DNA of 59,172 nt from a bacterium (GTDB lineage Bacteria > Patescibacteriota > Patescibacteriia > JACQRZ01), in NCBI GenBank assembly GCA_023246095.1, contig JAHFJA010000005.1, forward strand, positions 1 through 59,172, read 5' to 3'. A model generated the notes under the pieces. The model was not told where the DNA came from. It worked only from the letters and a program-made list of their open reading frames with translations, and did not search any database. Numbering within the stretch: position 1 is the first letter of the stretch; every line of letters begins with the position of its first letter. The translations under genes and the position numbers were made by a program. Below, piece after piece: positions 23,239 to 28,583 of this stretch.

Positions 23239-23703
23239 TTAGACTTTAATGGTTTTTTTGTTTACCTTCTTAGTGTTCGTAGTCTTTTTAATTGTCTTAG
23301 TTGCCGGAGTAGCAGGTTTTTTTTCAACAATTTCTTCCAACTCTAAATCCTGTCTGAAATCATCCCATCTATCTTTCAACGCAAGCGCGACATCATCTAA
23401 ATACTCCTTTCCAACTTTTGAACTCTTTGAAAAATTCTTCACTGCTGATACCACCATTTCTTCATAACCACTGCGAGACATTTTCTTTAGATTCTTTGTT
23501 CGTTTGAGCATCTCATCAGAAAGCGAATCAACCAACTTTTTGACAGACGCCTGTGTTTTCTTCCCCGTCTGTGGTGCCAAAAACAATGTAGCCACAGAGG
23601 CAATTAGTGCTCCAAATGCCGCACCTTTCAAAAATGGTTTGCTCATAGCAATTATATTATGATTTATGATGACATCATAACACTCAAAACGTCCCCACCG
23701 CAA
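23239..23703 (-). CDS. YtxH domain-containing protein
   Basis: FLKGAAFGALIASVATLFLAPQTGKKT motif; the true start may be the internal MSKPF. Confidence 0.85.
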   Translation of the reverse strand: MRWGRFECYDVIINHNIIAMSKPFLKGAAFGALIASVATLFLAPQTGKKTQASVKKLVDSLSDEMLKRTKNLKKMSRSGYEEMVVSAVKNFSKSSKVGKEYLDDVALALKDRWDDFRQDLELEEIVEKKPATPATKTIKKTTNTKKVNKKTIKV

Positions 23704-25885
23704 TAAACGTCAAGGTATTACCATAGTCACTTGCCGCAGGAGTCGTGGTAGCAACCGAGGCTTTGAGGAGAAGAGCAGCTCTTCCGGCACTGACGGGTGC
23801 TCCACTGGTCGTGAAGAGAGGTGATGCGGATGTTTGTATCTTACCGACCGTAGGAGTACCGGTGTTAGTGGAGGTACAGTTTGAGGTACCATCTGCATCG
23901 TAGTTGGCATTAGCAAGAAGAGTACCAGTGGTGGCGGTAAGGGATGACAAACAGGCGCCTATGCGCTGCTGACCCGCCGTGATGGTAGCTTCGTCAGTAG
24001 GAAGAGTAATCGTGGTACTAGTAGCAACCGAGGAAAGACCGGTGTTTGCTCCTTGCATGCTGACGGTCGCTCCGGCGATGGCGTTAGTGGTGACATCAAA
24101 GAAGATGGCATTGATGGTACCGGCGTTGTCGGTACGGGAGGTTGAAAGAATTGAAGGAGACAGCGTTCCTAACGTGACACTGTGGGGAGCACCGGTTTCA
24201 CTATCGGTGATAGCGGTGTCGATATCAAAGGTGATGGAAGGACTGACGGTGGCATTGATGGTTGCTTGGTCATCTTGGGTGATCCCCAGAGCAATGTCTC
24301 CGTTTTCATTGAAGGTGCCTCCGATACTCATGATGTAGGTACTCACACTAGAAGGATTGGTGATCTGCTGATCACCCGTGGTACCAACACTTGCGTTGGT
24401 ACCTACTTTGATGACCACCCGAGAAGATGGAGAGATAGTACCACTTCCTGAGGTGATGGTAAGGACTTGTCCTGAAACAGAAGCACCCCAGGTGGCACCA
24501 GAGGCACTCGCACCAAGAGTAAGGTCATTCTCTGAGCCTAGTGTAGGACCATAAGAAAGATCAATGTCTGTGTAATCAAGAGGGTTAGGAGCACCAGGGA
24601 TAGAGAAACCTGCAGGGAAGGTAACGGTCATTGTTTCGCCTGCGGCGACACCACCTCCGGTGGTGAACTCTATGGTGTGGTTAGAGAGAGTACTGATTTG
24701 AGCACGGGAGAGAGTGTCTTTGCGGAGAGTGGAGGGGGTGGAGGGAGGAGGAGGGGTGCTTGAACATGAAACATCACTGCATTCAGTATATTTAAGGTCA
24801 GTGTTGGTTACATCGTAATAAGCGACTTTTGGTATATTACTGCTATCCAATGCAAGGGAAGTGTATTTACCGACATTACCAGTGGAGTCAAGAGTTGAGG
24901 TGACCCACGATCCGGATTGATTGGTGGCATATTTCAGATCACCATTGGTTACGTCGTAGTAGCTGATGTATGCTTTACCAGAAGAATCGGTTTTCAGTGA
25001 GGTGTATTGTCCTACGTTGCCGGTTGAGTCAATTGCGGACATATTTCCGGCAAGCCACACACTTCCCACTGACTGTTGGGCATATTTCAAATTACCATTT
25101 GTTACGTCATAGTAGCTGATCACCGAATAGCCTCCTGACCCGACAGCAACAGAAGTGTGTTGTCCTACGTCGCCCGTCGAGTCAACCGTAGTGACCGACC
25201 AAATACCCGAAGAAGTATTGTCCGCATATTTCAAATTACCATTAGTGGCATCATAATAACTAATACGCACCCTATCCCGCGAATCTATTGCTATAGAAGA
25301 ATACTGTCCGACATCCCCACTCGAGTCAAGAGTAATTGCCACCCATGATCCTGAAGCGTTTGTTGCGTATTTCAGATCTTGACTCCCGGCATCATAATAA
25401 CTTACATGTACTTTTCCTGCAGAATCGAGAGCTATTGAAGTTGCGTGATCAAAGTATCCAGAGTCTGCTGTACTTACTACCCAAGATCCGGAAGCATTTG
25501 TTGCATATCGAAGTTCCAAAGGAGACTGATCTGTGTAAGTTATATGAGCTTTGCCACTTGCATCAATCGCAATAGAACTGCCACCGATGATCCAATCATC
25601 GGTACCAACATTAGTGGTAACCCAGGATCCGGAAGCATTTGTAGTATATACAGGGCGAAGGGGTAAAGAAAAATCACCTTCACTGACTATGTGCGCCTTA
25701 TTTGATGAATCCAAGGCAAGAGATATATTATTTTCGAACGATGTGGTGTAAATAGTAGAAACAGTCAGTGCAGCAAACGCAGGAGTGAGGATGTTATTCC
25801 CAAAAATAATCACCAACAAAAGAAACCAAACAAGGAACGATGGTCGCTGTTTTTTTGACTGCATCATAATAAATTGATTGTTCAT
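23684..25885 (-). CDS. Secreted surface protein: seven-repeat beta-propeller, Pro linker, Ser/Thr/Gly-rich beta domains
   Basis: Signal peptide ending PAFA; seven repeats of SIALDSxG..HISYYD.TN.DLKYA.N.SGSW; PPPPSTP linker; WxL-like C-terminus. Confidence 0.75.
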   Translation of the reverse strand: MNNQFIMMQSKKQRPSFLVWFLLLVIIFGNNILTPAFAALTVSTIYTTSFENNISLALDSSNKAHIVSEGDFSLPLRPVYTTNASGSWVTTNVGTDDWIIGGSSIAIDASGKAHITYTDQSPLELRYATNASGSWVVSTADSGYFDHATSIALDSAGKVHVSYYDAGSQDLKYATNASGSWVAITLDSSGDVGQYSSIAIDSRDRVRISYYDATNGNLKYADNTSSGIWSVTTVDSTGDVGQHTSVAVGSGGYSVISYYDVTNGNLKYAQQSVGSVWLAGNMSAIDSTGNVGQYTSLKTDSSGKAYISYYDVTNGDLKYATNQSGSWVTSTLDSTGNVGKYTSLALDSSNIPKVAYYDVTNTDLKYTECSDVSCSSTPPPPSTPSTLRKDTLSRAQISTLSNHTIEFTTGGGVAAGETMTVTFPAGFSIPGAPNPLDYTDIDLSYGPTLGSENDLTLGASASGATWGASVSGQVLTITSGSGTISPSSRVVIKVGTNASVGTTGDQQITNPSSVSTYIMSIGGTFNENGDIALGITQDDQATINATVSPSITFDIDTAITDSETGAPHSVTLGTLSPSILSTSRTDNAGTINAIFFDVTTNAIAGATVSMQGANTGLSSVATSTTITLPTDEATITAGQQRIGACLSSLTATTGTLLANANYDADGTSNCTSTNTGTPTVGKIQTSASPLFTTSGAPVSAGRAALLLKASVATTTPAASDYGNTLTFIAVGTF
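24780..25730 (-). repeat. Seven tandem intragenic repeats of about 47-50 aa
   Basis: DNA-level recurrences such as GGATCCGGAAGCATTTGT and ATATTTCAAATTACCATT; protein repeats visible in translation. Confidence 0.85.
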
Positions 25886-25916
25886 TTGCCTTAAAAACAA
25901 ATATATAGCAATTATA

Positions 25917-26882
25917 TCATTTTTTATGCTCCTGTATGTACCCCCAATCGGCTTTCGTTCCTTTAACACCCTTTTTATTCATAATGTAAAAATAGGCACT
26001 CAACGCTGCTTTCGCGCCATCTCCTGCTGATATAACAATCTGCTGGAAATCGACATTTGTTATATCTCCTGCGGCAAATAAACCTTCAACAACCGTATGT
26101 GCGTTGTGATCTATTGGGATTCTTCCTTGACTATCGGTCTGCAGTAATGACTGGAAAAGACTTATATCTGAATCATAACCGATCTTGATACATACTACGT
26201 CAACAAACAACACGTGAAATGAGGCGTCTTTGGTATACGTTATAGATTCTATTTTGTCATGACCGCTAATTGACGAAACTTCTGCATGATATATATATTC
26301 TATATTTTGAATTTCTTTTGTTCGCTGTATTAAAATATCCTCTGCCCGAAAACTCCCACGCCGATGCACAATAAATACTTTCCCTGCGGTACGGCTATGC
26401 AAAATCGCTTCCTCTAGAGCCGCACTCCCCCCACCCACAACAACAACATTTTTATCATTTATTTGTTCCTGTGGAATATCAATACTGCTGTAATATAGCC
26501 CTTTTCCTAACCATTCATTTTCATTAGGCAAACCTAATAATCGAGGTCTTTTACCACATGCTGCAATCAAAGTTTCCGCTTGAAATATCTGCTCGTTTGC
26601 TGATATGACGAACTGATCACCTATTTTTTGTATCGAATCAATGTTACCATATGCAAAATTACAACCAAATCTTGTAGCTTGTTCTTTCATGTTAGTCATT
26701 AATGTGGGTCCTTCAATCTGTACAACCCCGGGATAATTTTCAATTTCAAGTGTCGAGGCGGTTTGTCCACCGACTTCTTTGGTAATAATAAGCGTTTTTA
26801 GACCGCGCCTCCCCGCAAATATGCCCGCTGAGAGTCCCGCTGCTCCGCCACCTAAAATAACGACATCGAATAGTTCATTCAT
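25917..26882 (-). CDS. TrxB-fold FAD/NAD(P)H oxidoreductase lacking the CxxC motif
   Basis: GGGAAG, IENYPG, VVGGGSAA, HRR and GLFAAGD motifs present. GLYYSSID replaces the canonical GVSYCATCD. Start re-placed to ATG 26882. Confidence 0.85.
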   Translation of the reverse strand: MNELFDVVILGGGAAGLSAGIFAGRRGLKTLIITKEVGGQTASTLEIENYPGVVQIEGPTLMTNMKEQATRFGCNFAYGNIDSIQKIGDQFVISANEQIFQAETLIAACGKRPRLLGLPNENEWLGKGLYYSSIDIPQEQINDKNVVVVGGGSAALEEAILHSRTAGKVFIVHRRGSFRAEDILIQRTKEIQNIEYIYHAEVSSISGHDKIESITYTKDASFHVLFVDVVCIKIGYDSDISLFQSLLQTDSQGRIPIDHNAHTVVEGLFAAGDITNVDFQQIVISAGDGAKAALSAYFYIMNKKGVKGTKADWGYIQEHKK

Positions 26883-26887
26883 AACGT

Positions 26888-26911
26888 AAAACCCCGCCAA
26901 GGGGGCGGGGT
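26888..26911 (-). terminator. GC-rich hairpin with short U-tract between the small Cys-rich ORF and the TrxB-like gene
   Basis: Minus strand ACCCCGCC-CCCTT-GGCGGGGT-TTT. Confidence 0.6.
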
Positions 26912-26918
26912 AATTCAT

Positions 26919-27059
26919 TTAATTATATTCTTCATCACCGAACATTTCCTGATCTTCTTTTTCCCCCTCCTCCATTTTTACAAATGGTTGACCACACAAT
27001 TCACACACCCCAGGCGCGAGATAATCATCGCAGCACTGTTCGCACATGTATCTTGGCAT
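26919..27059 (-). CDS. 46-aa CxxC-x9-CxxC zinc-ribbon/rubredoxin-like protein (not in ORF track)
   Basis: Manual translation MPRYMCEQCCDDYLAPGVCELCGQPFVKMEEGEKEDQEMFGDEEYN*; fills the gap between pepA and the TrxB-like gene. Confidence 0.8.
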   Translation of the reverse strand: MPRYMCEQCCDDYLAPGVCELCGQPFVKMEEGEKEDQEMFGDEEYN

Positions 27060-27080
27060 ACTCTCGATAACTCTTAATAA

Positions 27081-28583
27081 TTATAATGACATTGATCGTG
27101 CAAGCTCTACTAGAAAACGTACCCCCGTACCACTTGCCCCTTTGCTGAGGAACTGGCCATCGGTCGTTGTCATAGTAGGGGCAATATCAATGTGTGCCCA
27201 TTTTGTAAATGATTTGGCAAACTGATAAAGAAACATACCGCCGTTGATAGTCCCTGCTTGCCTTCGCTGACGTTCCGCATTCGCAACGTCTCCAAACACT
27301 CCTTTTACGTCTCCTTCATATTCCTCCCACATTGGAAGAGGCCACATGTAATCACCACTTTTTTCTCCAATACTACACACTTCCTTTGAAAACTCTTCAT
27401 TGGGTGAAAGGACAGCCGATGCATTAGTCCCTAACGCGACAATTGATGCCCCTGTGAGAGTAGCCAAATCAACTACCAACGCTGGATCATAATGCTTTTC
27501 AGTATAGGTTAATGCGTCTGCTAATACAACTCTTCCTTCCGCATCCGGCGATACAACTTCGATCGTTTTACCTGACATTGATTTCAACAGATCACCAGGG
27601 CGATAGCTTTGTCCTGAAGGCATGTTTTCAACAGCAGGACACACACCAACCACATTGACCTTCAATCCCAGCTTTGCGATAGCACATATGGCAGATATGA
27701 CTGACGCAGCACCTGCCATATCCATATGCATCTCATTCATAGCACCTGAGGGTTTTAAGTCAAGCCCCCCACTATCAAAGGTGATTCCTTTTCCTAGGAA
27801 TACTAAGGGTTTTTCAGACTTTTCAGCCCCATTATATTCAAGAACAATCAACTGAGCATCTTCAACGCTACCCTTTGATACACCCAAAATACCTCCCATA
27901 CCCATCGTTGCCATTTCTTTCTCGTCAATAATGAGACAAGAAATTCCTACGTCTTTCGCCATACGCCGTGCACTATCTGCAAGCACGGTAGGGGTCATAT
28001 CTCCACCTGGCATATTTGAAAGTTCACGAGCATGGGTCATATATTCTCCTACAACCATACCCTCTCCAAGGGATGTTACTACCAAATCTTTCTGTGATTG
28101 GTCAGTATAGTATGCGAGTTCCTGTACAAAATACCATCCCTCTTTTGGGGTTTCTTTATGAGCAACAAATTCATAATTTGCCATCTCAGCATTGGTTGCA
28201 AACATATTTACCGACTCTACAAACGCAGTACCTGATGGAATAAACAAAGAAGGCTCCAAGACTGCAGACACGATATGCATATTACGCATACCTTGAATGA
28301 GAGCTCTTACTACCTTAACATATTTTCTACGATTATATTTTTCACGTTCCCCCATTCCAAGTAGGATTACAACGCCAATTTCATCACCAGGAAGAATAAT
28401 TTTCTCAATACTACCCACCGCCACAATCGCATCTTTTGCAACTTTTTGAATAAAATCTTTAATGCTCTGAGAAAATGTATCAACTAATACACTATCTTTT
28501 ACTGCTCGTTCATCGGTAAATAGCGGCAATACATATGTCGTAATCTGTGTCTTGGAAAGATTTGTAATTACACTGTGCTTCAT
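27081..28583 (-). CDS. pepA: Leucyl aminopeptidase (M17)
   Basis: GKGITFDSGG, DMAGAA, NMPSG, DAEGRVVLAD, WAHIDIA. Confidence 0.96.
   Translation of the reverse strand: MKHSVITNLSKTQITTYVLPLFTDERAVKDSVLVDTFSQSIKDFIQKVAKDAIVAVGSIEKIILPGDEIGVVILLGMGEREKYNRRKYVKVVRALIQGMRNMHIVSAVLEPSLFIPSGTAFVESVNMFATNAEMANYEFVAHKETPKEGWYFVQELAYYTDQSQKDLVVTSLGEGMVVGEYMTHARELSNMPGGDMTPTVLADSARRMAKDVGISCLIIDEKEMATMGMGGILGVSKGSVEDAQLIVLEYNGAEKSEKPLVFLGKGITFDSGGLDLKPSGAMNEMHMDMAGAASVISAICAIAKLGLKVNVVGVCPAVENMPSGQSYRPGDLLKSMSGKTIEVVSPDAEGRVVLADALTYTEKHYDPALVVDLATLTGASIVALGTNASAVLSPNEEFSKEVCSIGEKSGDYMWPLPMWEEYEGDVKGVFGDVANAERQRRQAGTINGGMFLYQFAKSFTKWAHIDIAPTMTTTDGQFLSKGASGTGVRFLVELARSMSL

Follow-up and report, generated by a model that had tools for sequence, protein, structure and literature searches.

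What does a thioredoxin reductase (TrxR) homolog do once its redox-active CxxC motif is gone and its FAD and NADPH motifs remain, and to which acceptor does it pass its electrons? This question is raised by one gene on the minus strand of the 59,172-nucleotide stretch of DNA analyzed here (the window), which belongs to an ultra-small groundwater bacterium represented by a Patescibacteria MAG of ~0.99 Mb, 94.8% complete and in 40 contigs. Enzymes with the TrxR fold and without CxxC are known, and have been described as distinct clusters of ferredoxin/flavodoxin-NADP+ reductases (FNRs), mostly from Firmicutes, Chlorobi and Proteobacteria. Knowing the acceptor of the protein studied here would show how NADPH-derived electrons are used in these minimal fermenters.

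A TrxR homolog with intact cofactor motifs and no redox dithiol

The gene under study, which we refer to by its product P0002, and the motifs that it encodes are located in the window as follows:

25917..26882, minus strand: gene for the CxxC-less TrxR-like flavoprotein P0002, 321 aa, Pyr_redox_2 at 5e-37
26835..26852, minus strand: FAD-binding GGGAAG motif, residues 11-16; G11, G13 and A19 invariant, and G16 nearly so, across the aligned TrxB homologs
26418..26435, minus strand: second Rossmann motif GGGSAA, residues 150-155, in the NADPH domain; G150-G152 and A155 invariant
26346..26366, minus strand: H173-R174-R175-x3-R179, matching the E. coli TrxB NADPH 2'-phosphate motif HRRxxxR; H173 and R174 clade-invariant
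26478..26489, minus strand: codons for S132-S133-I134-D135, where TrxRs have their redox motif C-A-T-C
26040..26045, minus strand: Q280-Q281, a subclade signature; CxxC-bearing relatives have K/R-Q
25938..25949, minus strand: C-terminal tail D312-W313-G314-Y315; D312, W313 and G314 clade-invariant

A longer reading frame starting at 26918 is improbable, since a terminator-like hairpin with a T-run (26891-26911) falls inside it, just before the ATG at 26882. P0002 matched the Pfam domains Pyr_redox_2, Pyr_redox_3 and Pyr_redox, and its best NCBIfam model was the TrxR equivalog TIGR01292, with 267 bits over model positions 2-300 of 300. This score lies below the curated cut-off of 343 bits, and is not diagnostic, because the genuine CxxC TrxB of the same genome (264 bits) falls below the cut-off too, i.e., lineage divergence is responsible. 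The AF2 model of P0002 had a pLDDT of 93, with low confidence (pLDDT 50-59) in the C-terminal tail, part of an extension of ~17 residues that carries the invariant D-W-G.

The TrxB cofactor motifs GxGxxG, GGGxxA, HRRxxxR and GD are all found in P0002 (the ORF translation has LGGGAAG at residues 10-16 and HRRGSFR at 173-179), confirming a preliminary description of this gene, made from the DNA letters, which had reported GGGAAG, GGGSAA and HRR to be intact. From these motifs we infer that P0002 binds FAD and accepts hydride from NADPH. At the redox site, residues 126-137 read GKGLYYSSIDIP, and HMMER placed "yySSiDip" opposite "syCavC-dg" of the Staphylococcus aureus TrxB 4gcm, so that SSID stands where TrxB has CxxC, as that description had also recognized. 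An assembly error as the origin of SSID is excluded: for the probable source sample there is a separate Logan assembly, in which positions 25800-27200 lie in a single contig with 0 differences at a depth of ~9. SSTD occupies this position in three relatives that come from other samples and are 64-74% identical to P0002. The only cysteines in P0002 are C74, C109 and C231.

The CxxC-less proteins form a clade inside the TrxRs

P0002 aligns with low-Mr TrxRs from end to end, with S. aureus TrxB (4gcm) as the top PDB match (E 1.4e-52, residues 5-301, HMMER), and its best PDB-sequence and Foldseek matches are all genuine TrxRs; the only FNR in the Foldseek list was that of Thermus thermophilus (2zbw). 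The gene had been labeled "YumC type", a label that does not hold by descent: TrxRs reached 182 bits at 37% identity, whereas YumC (3lzw) scored 102 bits and 2zbw was 26% identical, and among the PDB sequences as a whole the TrxR-like FNR chains scored 48-102 bits and the TrxRs 146-182 bits. Compared with low-Mr TrxB (S. aureus 4gcm and Lactococcus lactis 5mh4, 31-37% identity), P0002 has the same fold and length, and the FAD motifs, GGGxxA and HRRxxxR in common, but it differs in having SSID for CxxC, an unconstrained adjacent loop and Q-Q for K/R-Q. Judged by these residues, P0002 cannot carry out dithiol-disulfide exchange as TrxB does.

In the set of 120 database proteins closest to P0002, the most similar ones lack CxxC and have very varied residues at that site, and the more distant ones, with 40-45% identity, are canonical CATC enzymes. 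Our maximum likelihood tree of 107 sequences, which was built without TrxR-like FNR sequences, grouped 44 of the 45 CxxC-less proteins in a single clade (SH-aLRT 98) that lies among TrxRs from Patescibacteria and DPANN with both CxxC and HRR, and joined P0002 and three close relatives in a subgroup with 100% support. The far better TrxR scores and the nesting of this clade within canonical Patescibacteria TrxRs together place P0002 outside the YumC lineage. The clade spans several GTDB families. Bit scores of an HMM of the clade ran continuously from 470 to 286 and did not separate CxxC-less from canonical proteins, and we therefore assigned proteins as CxxC-less from the sequences themselves, with 20 further genomes checked.

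The nearest kin of the clade, at 40-45% identity, are CxxC TrxRs of Patescibacteria and DPANN with a tryptophan in the C-terminal tail (for example, P0062 and P0074). These have the D-W tail, GKxPR and HRR in common with P0002; they differ from it in keeping CATC and the aromatic pair that follows, and none of them adjoins the two genes found upstream of P0002, those for the aminopeptidase PepA and for a small protein with four cysteines (0/132 loci). D312 and W313 are at least 90% conserved in a mixed alignment that includes canonical CPR TrxBs; since the CxxC-bearing sisters have the Asp-Trp tail too, it is older than the loss of the cysteines. Many CxxC TrxRs of Patescibacteria and DPANN archaea, at >80 of about 135 loci, end in a D-W-(G/T/K/E...) tail. 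The D-W tail may stack on the flavin.

The TrxR-like FNRs (YumC/FNR2, FNR1/IruO and the Ct/Rp enzymes) resemble P0002 in having a TrxR fold without CxxC and a preserved NAD(P)H site, but their origin is separate, and the sequence of P0002 clusters with TrxRs instead. In these FNRs, a C-terminal subdomain extends across the FAD of the partner subunit and supplies a His, Val, Tyr or Phe stacking residue (PMC10294844), whereas P0002 appears to have no long subdomain of this kind, and instead a short Asp-Trp tail, modeled with low confidence, that it inherited from CxxC TrxRs. By analogy, the two groups probably have the same general mode of action, direct transfer from flavin to acceptor, and in this respect P0002 may work in a YumC-like manner.

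These comparisons are best read to mean that P0002 is a paralog, both lineage-specific and optional, of the low-Mr TrxRs with a Trp tail in Patescibacteria, and that it represents a separate loss of the dithiol. What is new is this separately arisen CxxC-less TrxR-fold flavoprotein in Patescibacteria, as read from the sequences; TrxR-fold NADPH flavoproteins without CxxC are a known class. No description of this CPR clade was found in the literature. Some of its members carry the automated NCBI name "FAD-dependent oxidoreductase" and nothing more specific, and in other pipelines they may appear as thioredoxin reductase; as a consequence of such naming, reconstructions of CPR redox metabolism can miscount thiol-reducing capacity.

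Constraint after the loss of the dithiol

Across the CxxC-less clade, the loop equivalent to CATC is hypervariable and no cysteine column is universal. Within it, a subclade of 36 members with 41-74% identity, including P0002, has Q-Q in 36/36 members, a pair found in none of the CxxC-bearing sequences (the QQ subclade). Its alignment contains 45 invariant columns, among them GxGxxG, GGQT, EIENYPG, GGG..A, H-R, G-D, Q-Q-I and D-W-G, and this invariance, which includes the cofactor motifs, speaks for an enzyme that binds its cofactors and is under purifying selection. The alignment shows that the putative thioredoxin-facing loop, by comparison, is no longer under constraint. With no redox dithiol and no conserved cysteine in the clade, the earlier proposal that the standard TrxR route to thioredoxin is barred was borne out.

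In most members of the main QQ subclade, semi-conserved cysteines (47-78%) occur near the GD flavin motif (C-D..G, C-x-T, G-D-C-T-T). Their alignment columns, 297, 309 and 322, correspond to T249, A261 and I274 in P0002, and the cysteines are absent from the subgroup of P0002. Part of the QQ subclade could thereby have evolved a thiol pair anew.

A conserved locus with a Cys4 mini-protein

The genes and elements around the reductase gene that recur in its relatives are:

27081..28583, minus strand: M17 leucyl aminopeptidase (PepA), conserved upstream neighbor
26919..27059, minus strand: P0003, a 46-aa zinc-ribbon protein with four cysteines (Cys4, CxxC-x9-CxxC) and an acidic tail, conserved neighbor directly upstream of the reductase
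26891..26911, minus strand: GC-rich hairpin and T-run, terminator/attenuator-like, 8 pairs of which 7 are GC, between the stop of the mini-ORF and the reductase ATG
23239..23703, minus strand: YtxH-like gene, directly after the reductase in relatives; here a 2.2-kb surface-protein gene intervenes

The order PepA, Cys4 protein, reductase, YtxH was present at all 14 of the QQ-subclade loci, from eight distinct genomes including that of the window and down to 41% identity, and beside 0 of 132 CxxC-bearing TrxB genes. The Cys4 gene and the reductase gene are on the same strand and 34-220 nt apart (34-78 nt at all loci but one, L094). All genomes with this block belong to one GTDB family, and the adjacency may thus be inherited gene order.

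The Cys4 proteins share Y-x-C-x2-C-G-x7-G-x-C-x2-C, an acidic tail of varying length and an aromatic/acidic C-terminal tip. In architecture, with a disordered acidic tail attached to a zinc ribbon, they match Ruc-type Zn-binding proteins and not rubredoxin; Ruc itself has a disordered tail joined to its Zn(Cys)4 ribbon, and turns into a chaperone upon oxidation (PMC7448276). In the window and seven related loci the acidic tails range from ~18 to 75 residues, and their tip, mostly [FY]-[DE]-D-E-[DE]-(x)-Y/N, resembles a C-terminal docking motif. A complex prediction with two copies of P0002, two FAD and the Cys4 protein gave a score of 0.00, which counts neither way on binding.

An equivalent of the hairpin occurs in the same intergenic gap of 7/7 relatives, and suggests that transcription is terminated or attenuated after the Cys4 gene. 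In the window and several relatives the hairpin lies only about 10-15 nt before the reductase ATG; this leaves no room for a promoter between the two, which suggests that the reductase is expressed by (attenuated) read-through. A metatranscriptome of the same sample gave no match on this stretch, and is uninformative on expression.

Neither the reductase nor the Cys4 protein requires the other

Within the GTDB family, the Cys4 protein is present in 15 of 16 genomes and the CxxC-less paralog in at least 8 of 16. In four genomes from two genera of this family (G061, G310, G308 and G309), the locus consists of PepA, Cys4 protein and YtxH, with no reductase gene. These four and a fifth family genome, one of them 100% complete, contain only a CxxC TrxR without HRR, next to a glutaredoxin (Grx)-like gene. 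The CxxC TrxR thus works without P0002, and the CxxC-less paralog is optional, since these five genomes carry the CxxC enzyme alone. Conversely, CxxC-less relatives in four other families have no Cys4 neighbor. As the Cys4 protein and this type of reductase each occur without the other, neither requires the other, and we did not find the obligatory co-occurrence with a Cys4 Fe carrier that would mark a pair of the NAD(P)H:rubredoxin oxidoreductase type.

Thiol and electron-carrier genes of the source genome

A canonical trxB was sought elsewhere in the source genome, and a second homolog, this one with CxxC, was found:

Contig C25 of the source genome, 9849-10751 (1447-2406 in locus L002), minus strand: TrxB homolog with CITC, directly downstream of the genome's only glutaredoxin-family gene

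This protein has IRGDRIK instead of HRRxxxR, and is closest to the Sulfolobus solfataricus TrxR-B3 type. Together with its Grx-like neighbor, it is predicted to cover thiol reduction. The genome also encodes one peroxiredoxin, and contained no classical thioredoxin above cut-off. The corresponding housekeeping TrxR of the family (loci L156-L161 and L193-L198) has its CxxC in GVHYCxTCD and always lies beside a Grx-like gene (TPTCGYC); in this TrxR, HRRxxxR is replaced by [IV]RGxxx[RKN]AEP and GGGNSA by GGGD[AGS][AS], and in most cases there is a conserved C-terminal G-D-x-C-x-x-H. This enzyme probably uses NADH or both nucleotides.

The Pfam models Fer4, Fer4_7, Fer2, Flavodoxin_1, Flavodoxin_NdrI, Rubredoxin and Rubrerythrin, each of which recovered its family in control genomes, gave zero matches in this ~95% complete genome, a result compatible with a divergent or novel carrier and with a gene in the ~5% that is missing. 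With these models empty, the usual FNR substrates appear to be missing. The loss of the dithiol with retention of the NADPH site has happened separately inside the TrxR lineage of Patescibacteria, organisms for which the searches gave neither ferredoxin nor flavodoxin. Two specific partners were tried and rejected. A rubrerythrin or rubredoxin was found by neither Pfam model, and a conserved role as cobalamin reductase for the adenosyltransferase PduO encoded in the window does not fit the distribution, as PduO (PF01923) is present in 2 of 16 family genomes and the paralog in at least 8 of 16.

Proposed role and alternative explanations

We tentatively propose that P0002 is an optional NADPH flavoprotein paralog that donates electrons directly from its flavin to a small-molecule acceptor, in an oxidase/diaphorase role. 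NADPH would reduce the FAD of P0002, and since the dithiol is lost and the clade has no conserved cysteine, the reduced flavin would have to pass its electrons straight to a non-disulfide acceptor, as in TrxR-like FNRs. The acceptor, the weakest step of this proposal, would be a small molecule, i.e., O2, a flavin, a metal chelate or a quinone-like dye substrate; a small molecule appears most likely, as the genome search turned up no classical protein carrier and some members of the family do without the gene. The resulting enzyme would be of the NADPH oxidase/diaphorase type, and would serve NADP(H) balance or tolerance of oxygen and oxidants. S. solfataricus TrxR-B3 is a two-domain flavoprotein with a role as NAD(P)H oxidase/diaphorase. 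In addition, HvFdR of Haloferax volcanii is described as a flavoprotein with two dinucleotide domains and an NAD(P)H oxidase/diaphorase role in NADP(H) homeostasis (PMC13640641), and offers a functional analogy to P0002, although it belongs to another family (IPR050260). Two observations speak against our proposal: the invariance of QQ and DWG is not readily accounted for by a nonspecific oxidase, and the Cys4 gene is strictly adjacent wherever the QQ subclade occurs (14/14 loci). The functional class that the preliminary description had assigned, an NADPH flavoprotein without a dithiol route, is plausible from the sequence, whereas the family that it named and its type of acceptor, a metal-centre carrier, are unsupported: the carrier models were empty, and the only candidate, the Cys4 mini-protein, persists in sister genomes without a reductase at the locus. 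The finding is modest, in that the mechanism class is familiar and the gene optional.

In the only form available to it, the idea of a metal-centre acceptor involves the adjacent Cys4 protein. P0002 could be the NADPH reductase of a protein metal centre, with the Cys4 protein as a rubredoxin-like Fe(Cys)4 carrier, and the same-strand adjacency in every QQ-subclade locus but at none of the 132 CxxC-bearing TrxB loci, the conservation of the Cys4 knuckles, acidic tail and aromatic C-terminal tip, and the lack of any other carrier found in the genome would all be in line with this. We nevertheless consider it unlikely, given that the whole block from PepA to YtxH is syntenic in one GTDB family and may be inherited order, that four family genomes keep the Cys4 gene with no reductase gene at the locus, that CxxC-less relatives of other families have no Cys4 neighbor, and that a conserved terminator-like hairpin divides the two genes; moreover, the architecture is that of Ruc-type Zn-binding proteins (PMC7448276), and the Pfam Rubredoxin model was empty. 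It is rather improbable, too, that in bacteria devoid of all classical soluble electron carriers P0002 is an NADPH-driven reductase dedicated to the Cys4 mini-protein, which would act as a minimal rubredoxin-like carrier or be reset as a Ruc-like chaperone, with the hairpin setting the stoichiometry of the two; if true, the pair would be a two-gene redox module without a described counterpart. Alternatively, P0002 could be a disulfide or persulfide reductase that employs a thiol provided in trans, for example, one that resets an oxidized Cys4 Ruc-like switch or reduces a low-molecular-weight disulfide. P0002 does descend from a disulfide reductase, its neighbor has four conserved cysteines and a Ruc-like architecture, and semi-conserved cysteines lie near GD in the main QQ subclade, though not in P0002. 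The flavin face of TrxR is covered by a loop of the NADPH domain or by the nicotinamide. Access of an external protein disulfide to the flavin is accordingly doubtful, P0002 and its closest relatives are without those cysteines, the clade as a whole has no conserved cysteine, and the Cys4 mini-protein exists without the reductase, all of which make such a role improbable.

The remaining explanations look away from the Cys4 protein. As in TrxR-like FNRs, P0002 lacks CxxC and keeps its NADPH site, and the invariant Trp313 of its C-terminal extension could stack on FAD like the His, Val, Tyr or Phe of FNRs (PMC10294844), as would suit a classical enzyme of the YumC/FNR2/IruO type for a ferredoxin, flavodoxin, NrdI or heme-degrading partner that our search missed. 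There is little likelihood of this, however, because P0002 is much closer to TrxRs, inside which it nests, than to any solved FNR, the Trp tail is also present in CxxC TrxRs and is thus not an adaptation to FNR function, and the Fer4, Fer4_7, Fer2, flavodoxin and NrdI models matched nothing in the genome. That P0002 is an idle pseudoenzyme, such as an NADPH-binding regulator or a structural partner, or a gene in the course of being lost, would agree with its dispensability in the family and the free drift of the old active-site loop; against this, every member seen has an uninterrupted frame, neither the cofactor motifs nor QQ and DWG vary over deep divergence, and the clade persists across several GTDB families, and we regard idleness as improbable as well. 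Finally, the losses in the two homologs are complementary in 6/6 genomes examined (HRR without CxxC, CxxC without HRR), which could point to a split NADPH-thioredoxin reductase in which P0002 relays NADPH electrons to the HRR-less CxxC TrxR. An obligate relay of this kind is contradicted by the five family genomes with an identical HRR-less CxxC TrxR and Grx-like gene and no CxxC-less paralog, and a split reductase is highly improbable.

Additional features of the locus and a second pairing

Only in the window is a 2.2-kb propeller/surface-protein gene (23684-25885, minus strand) located between the reductase and YtxH genes; it is absent there in the relatives. Positions 24001-26000 have a GC content of 0.455, the highest in the window, and a skew of +0.089, one of only two positive values. 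This gene looks like a recent insertion into the conserved block.

In another Patescibacteria genome (G036), a 64-aa Cys-rich protein of the FmdB/Zn_ribbon_8 type, similar to the Ruc family, ends 4-10 nt before a canonical TrxB (loci L015 and L173), another case, unrelated to the first, in which a zinc-ribbon gene is paired with a TrxB gene.
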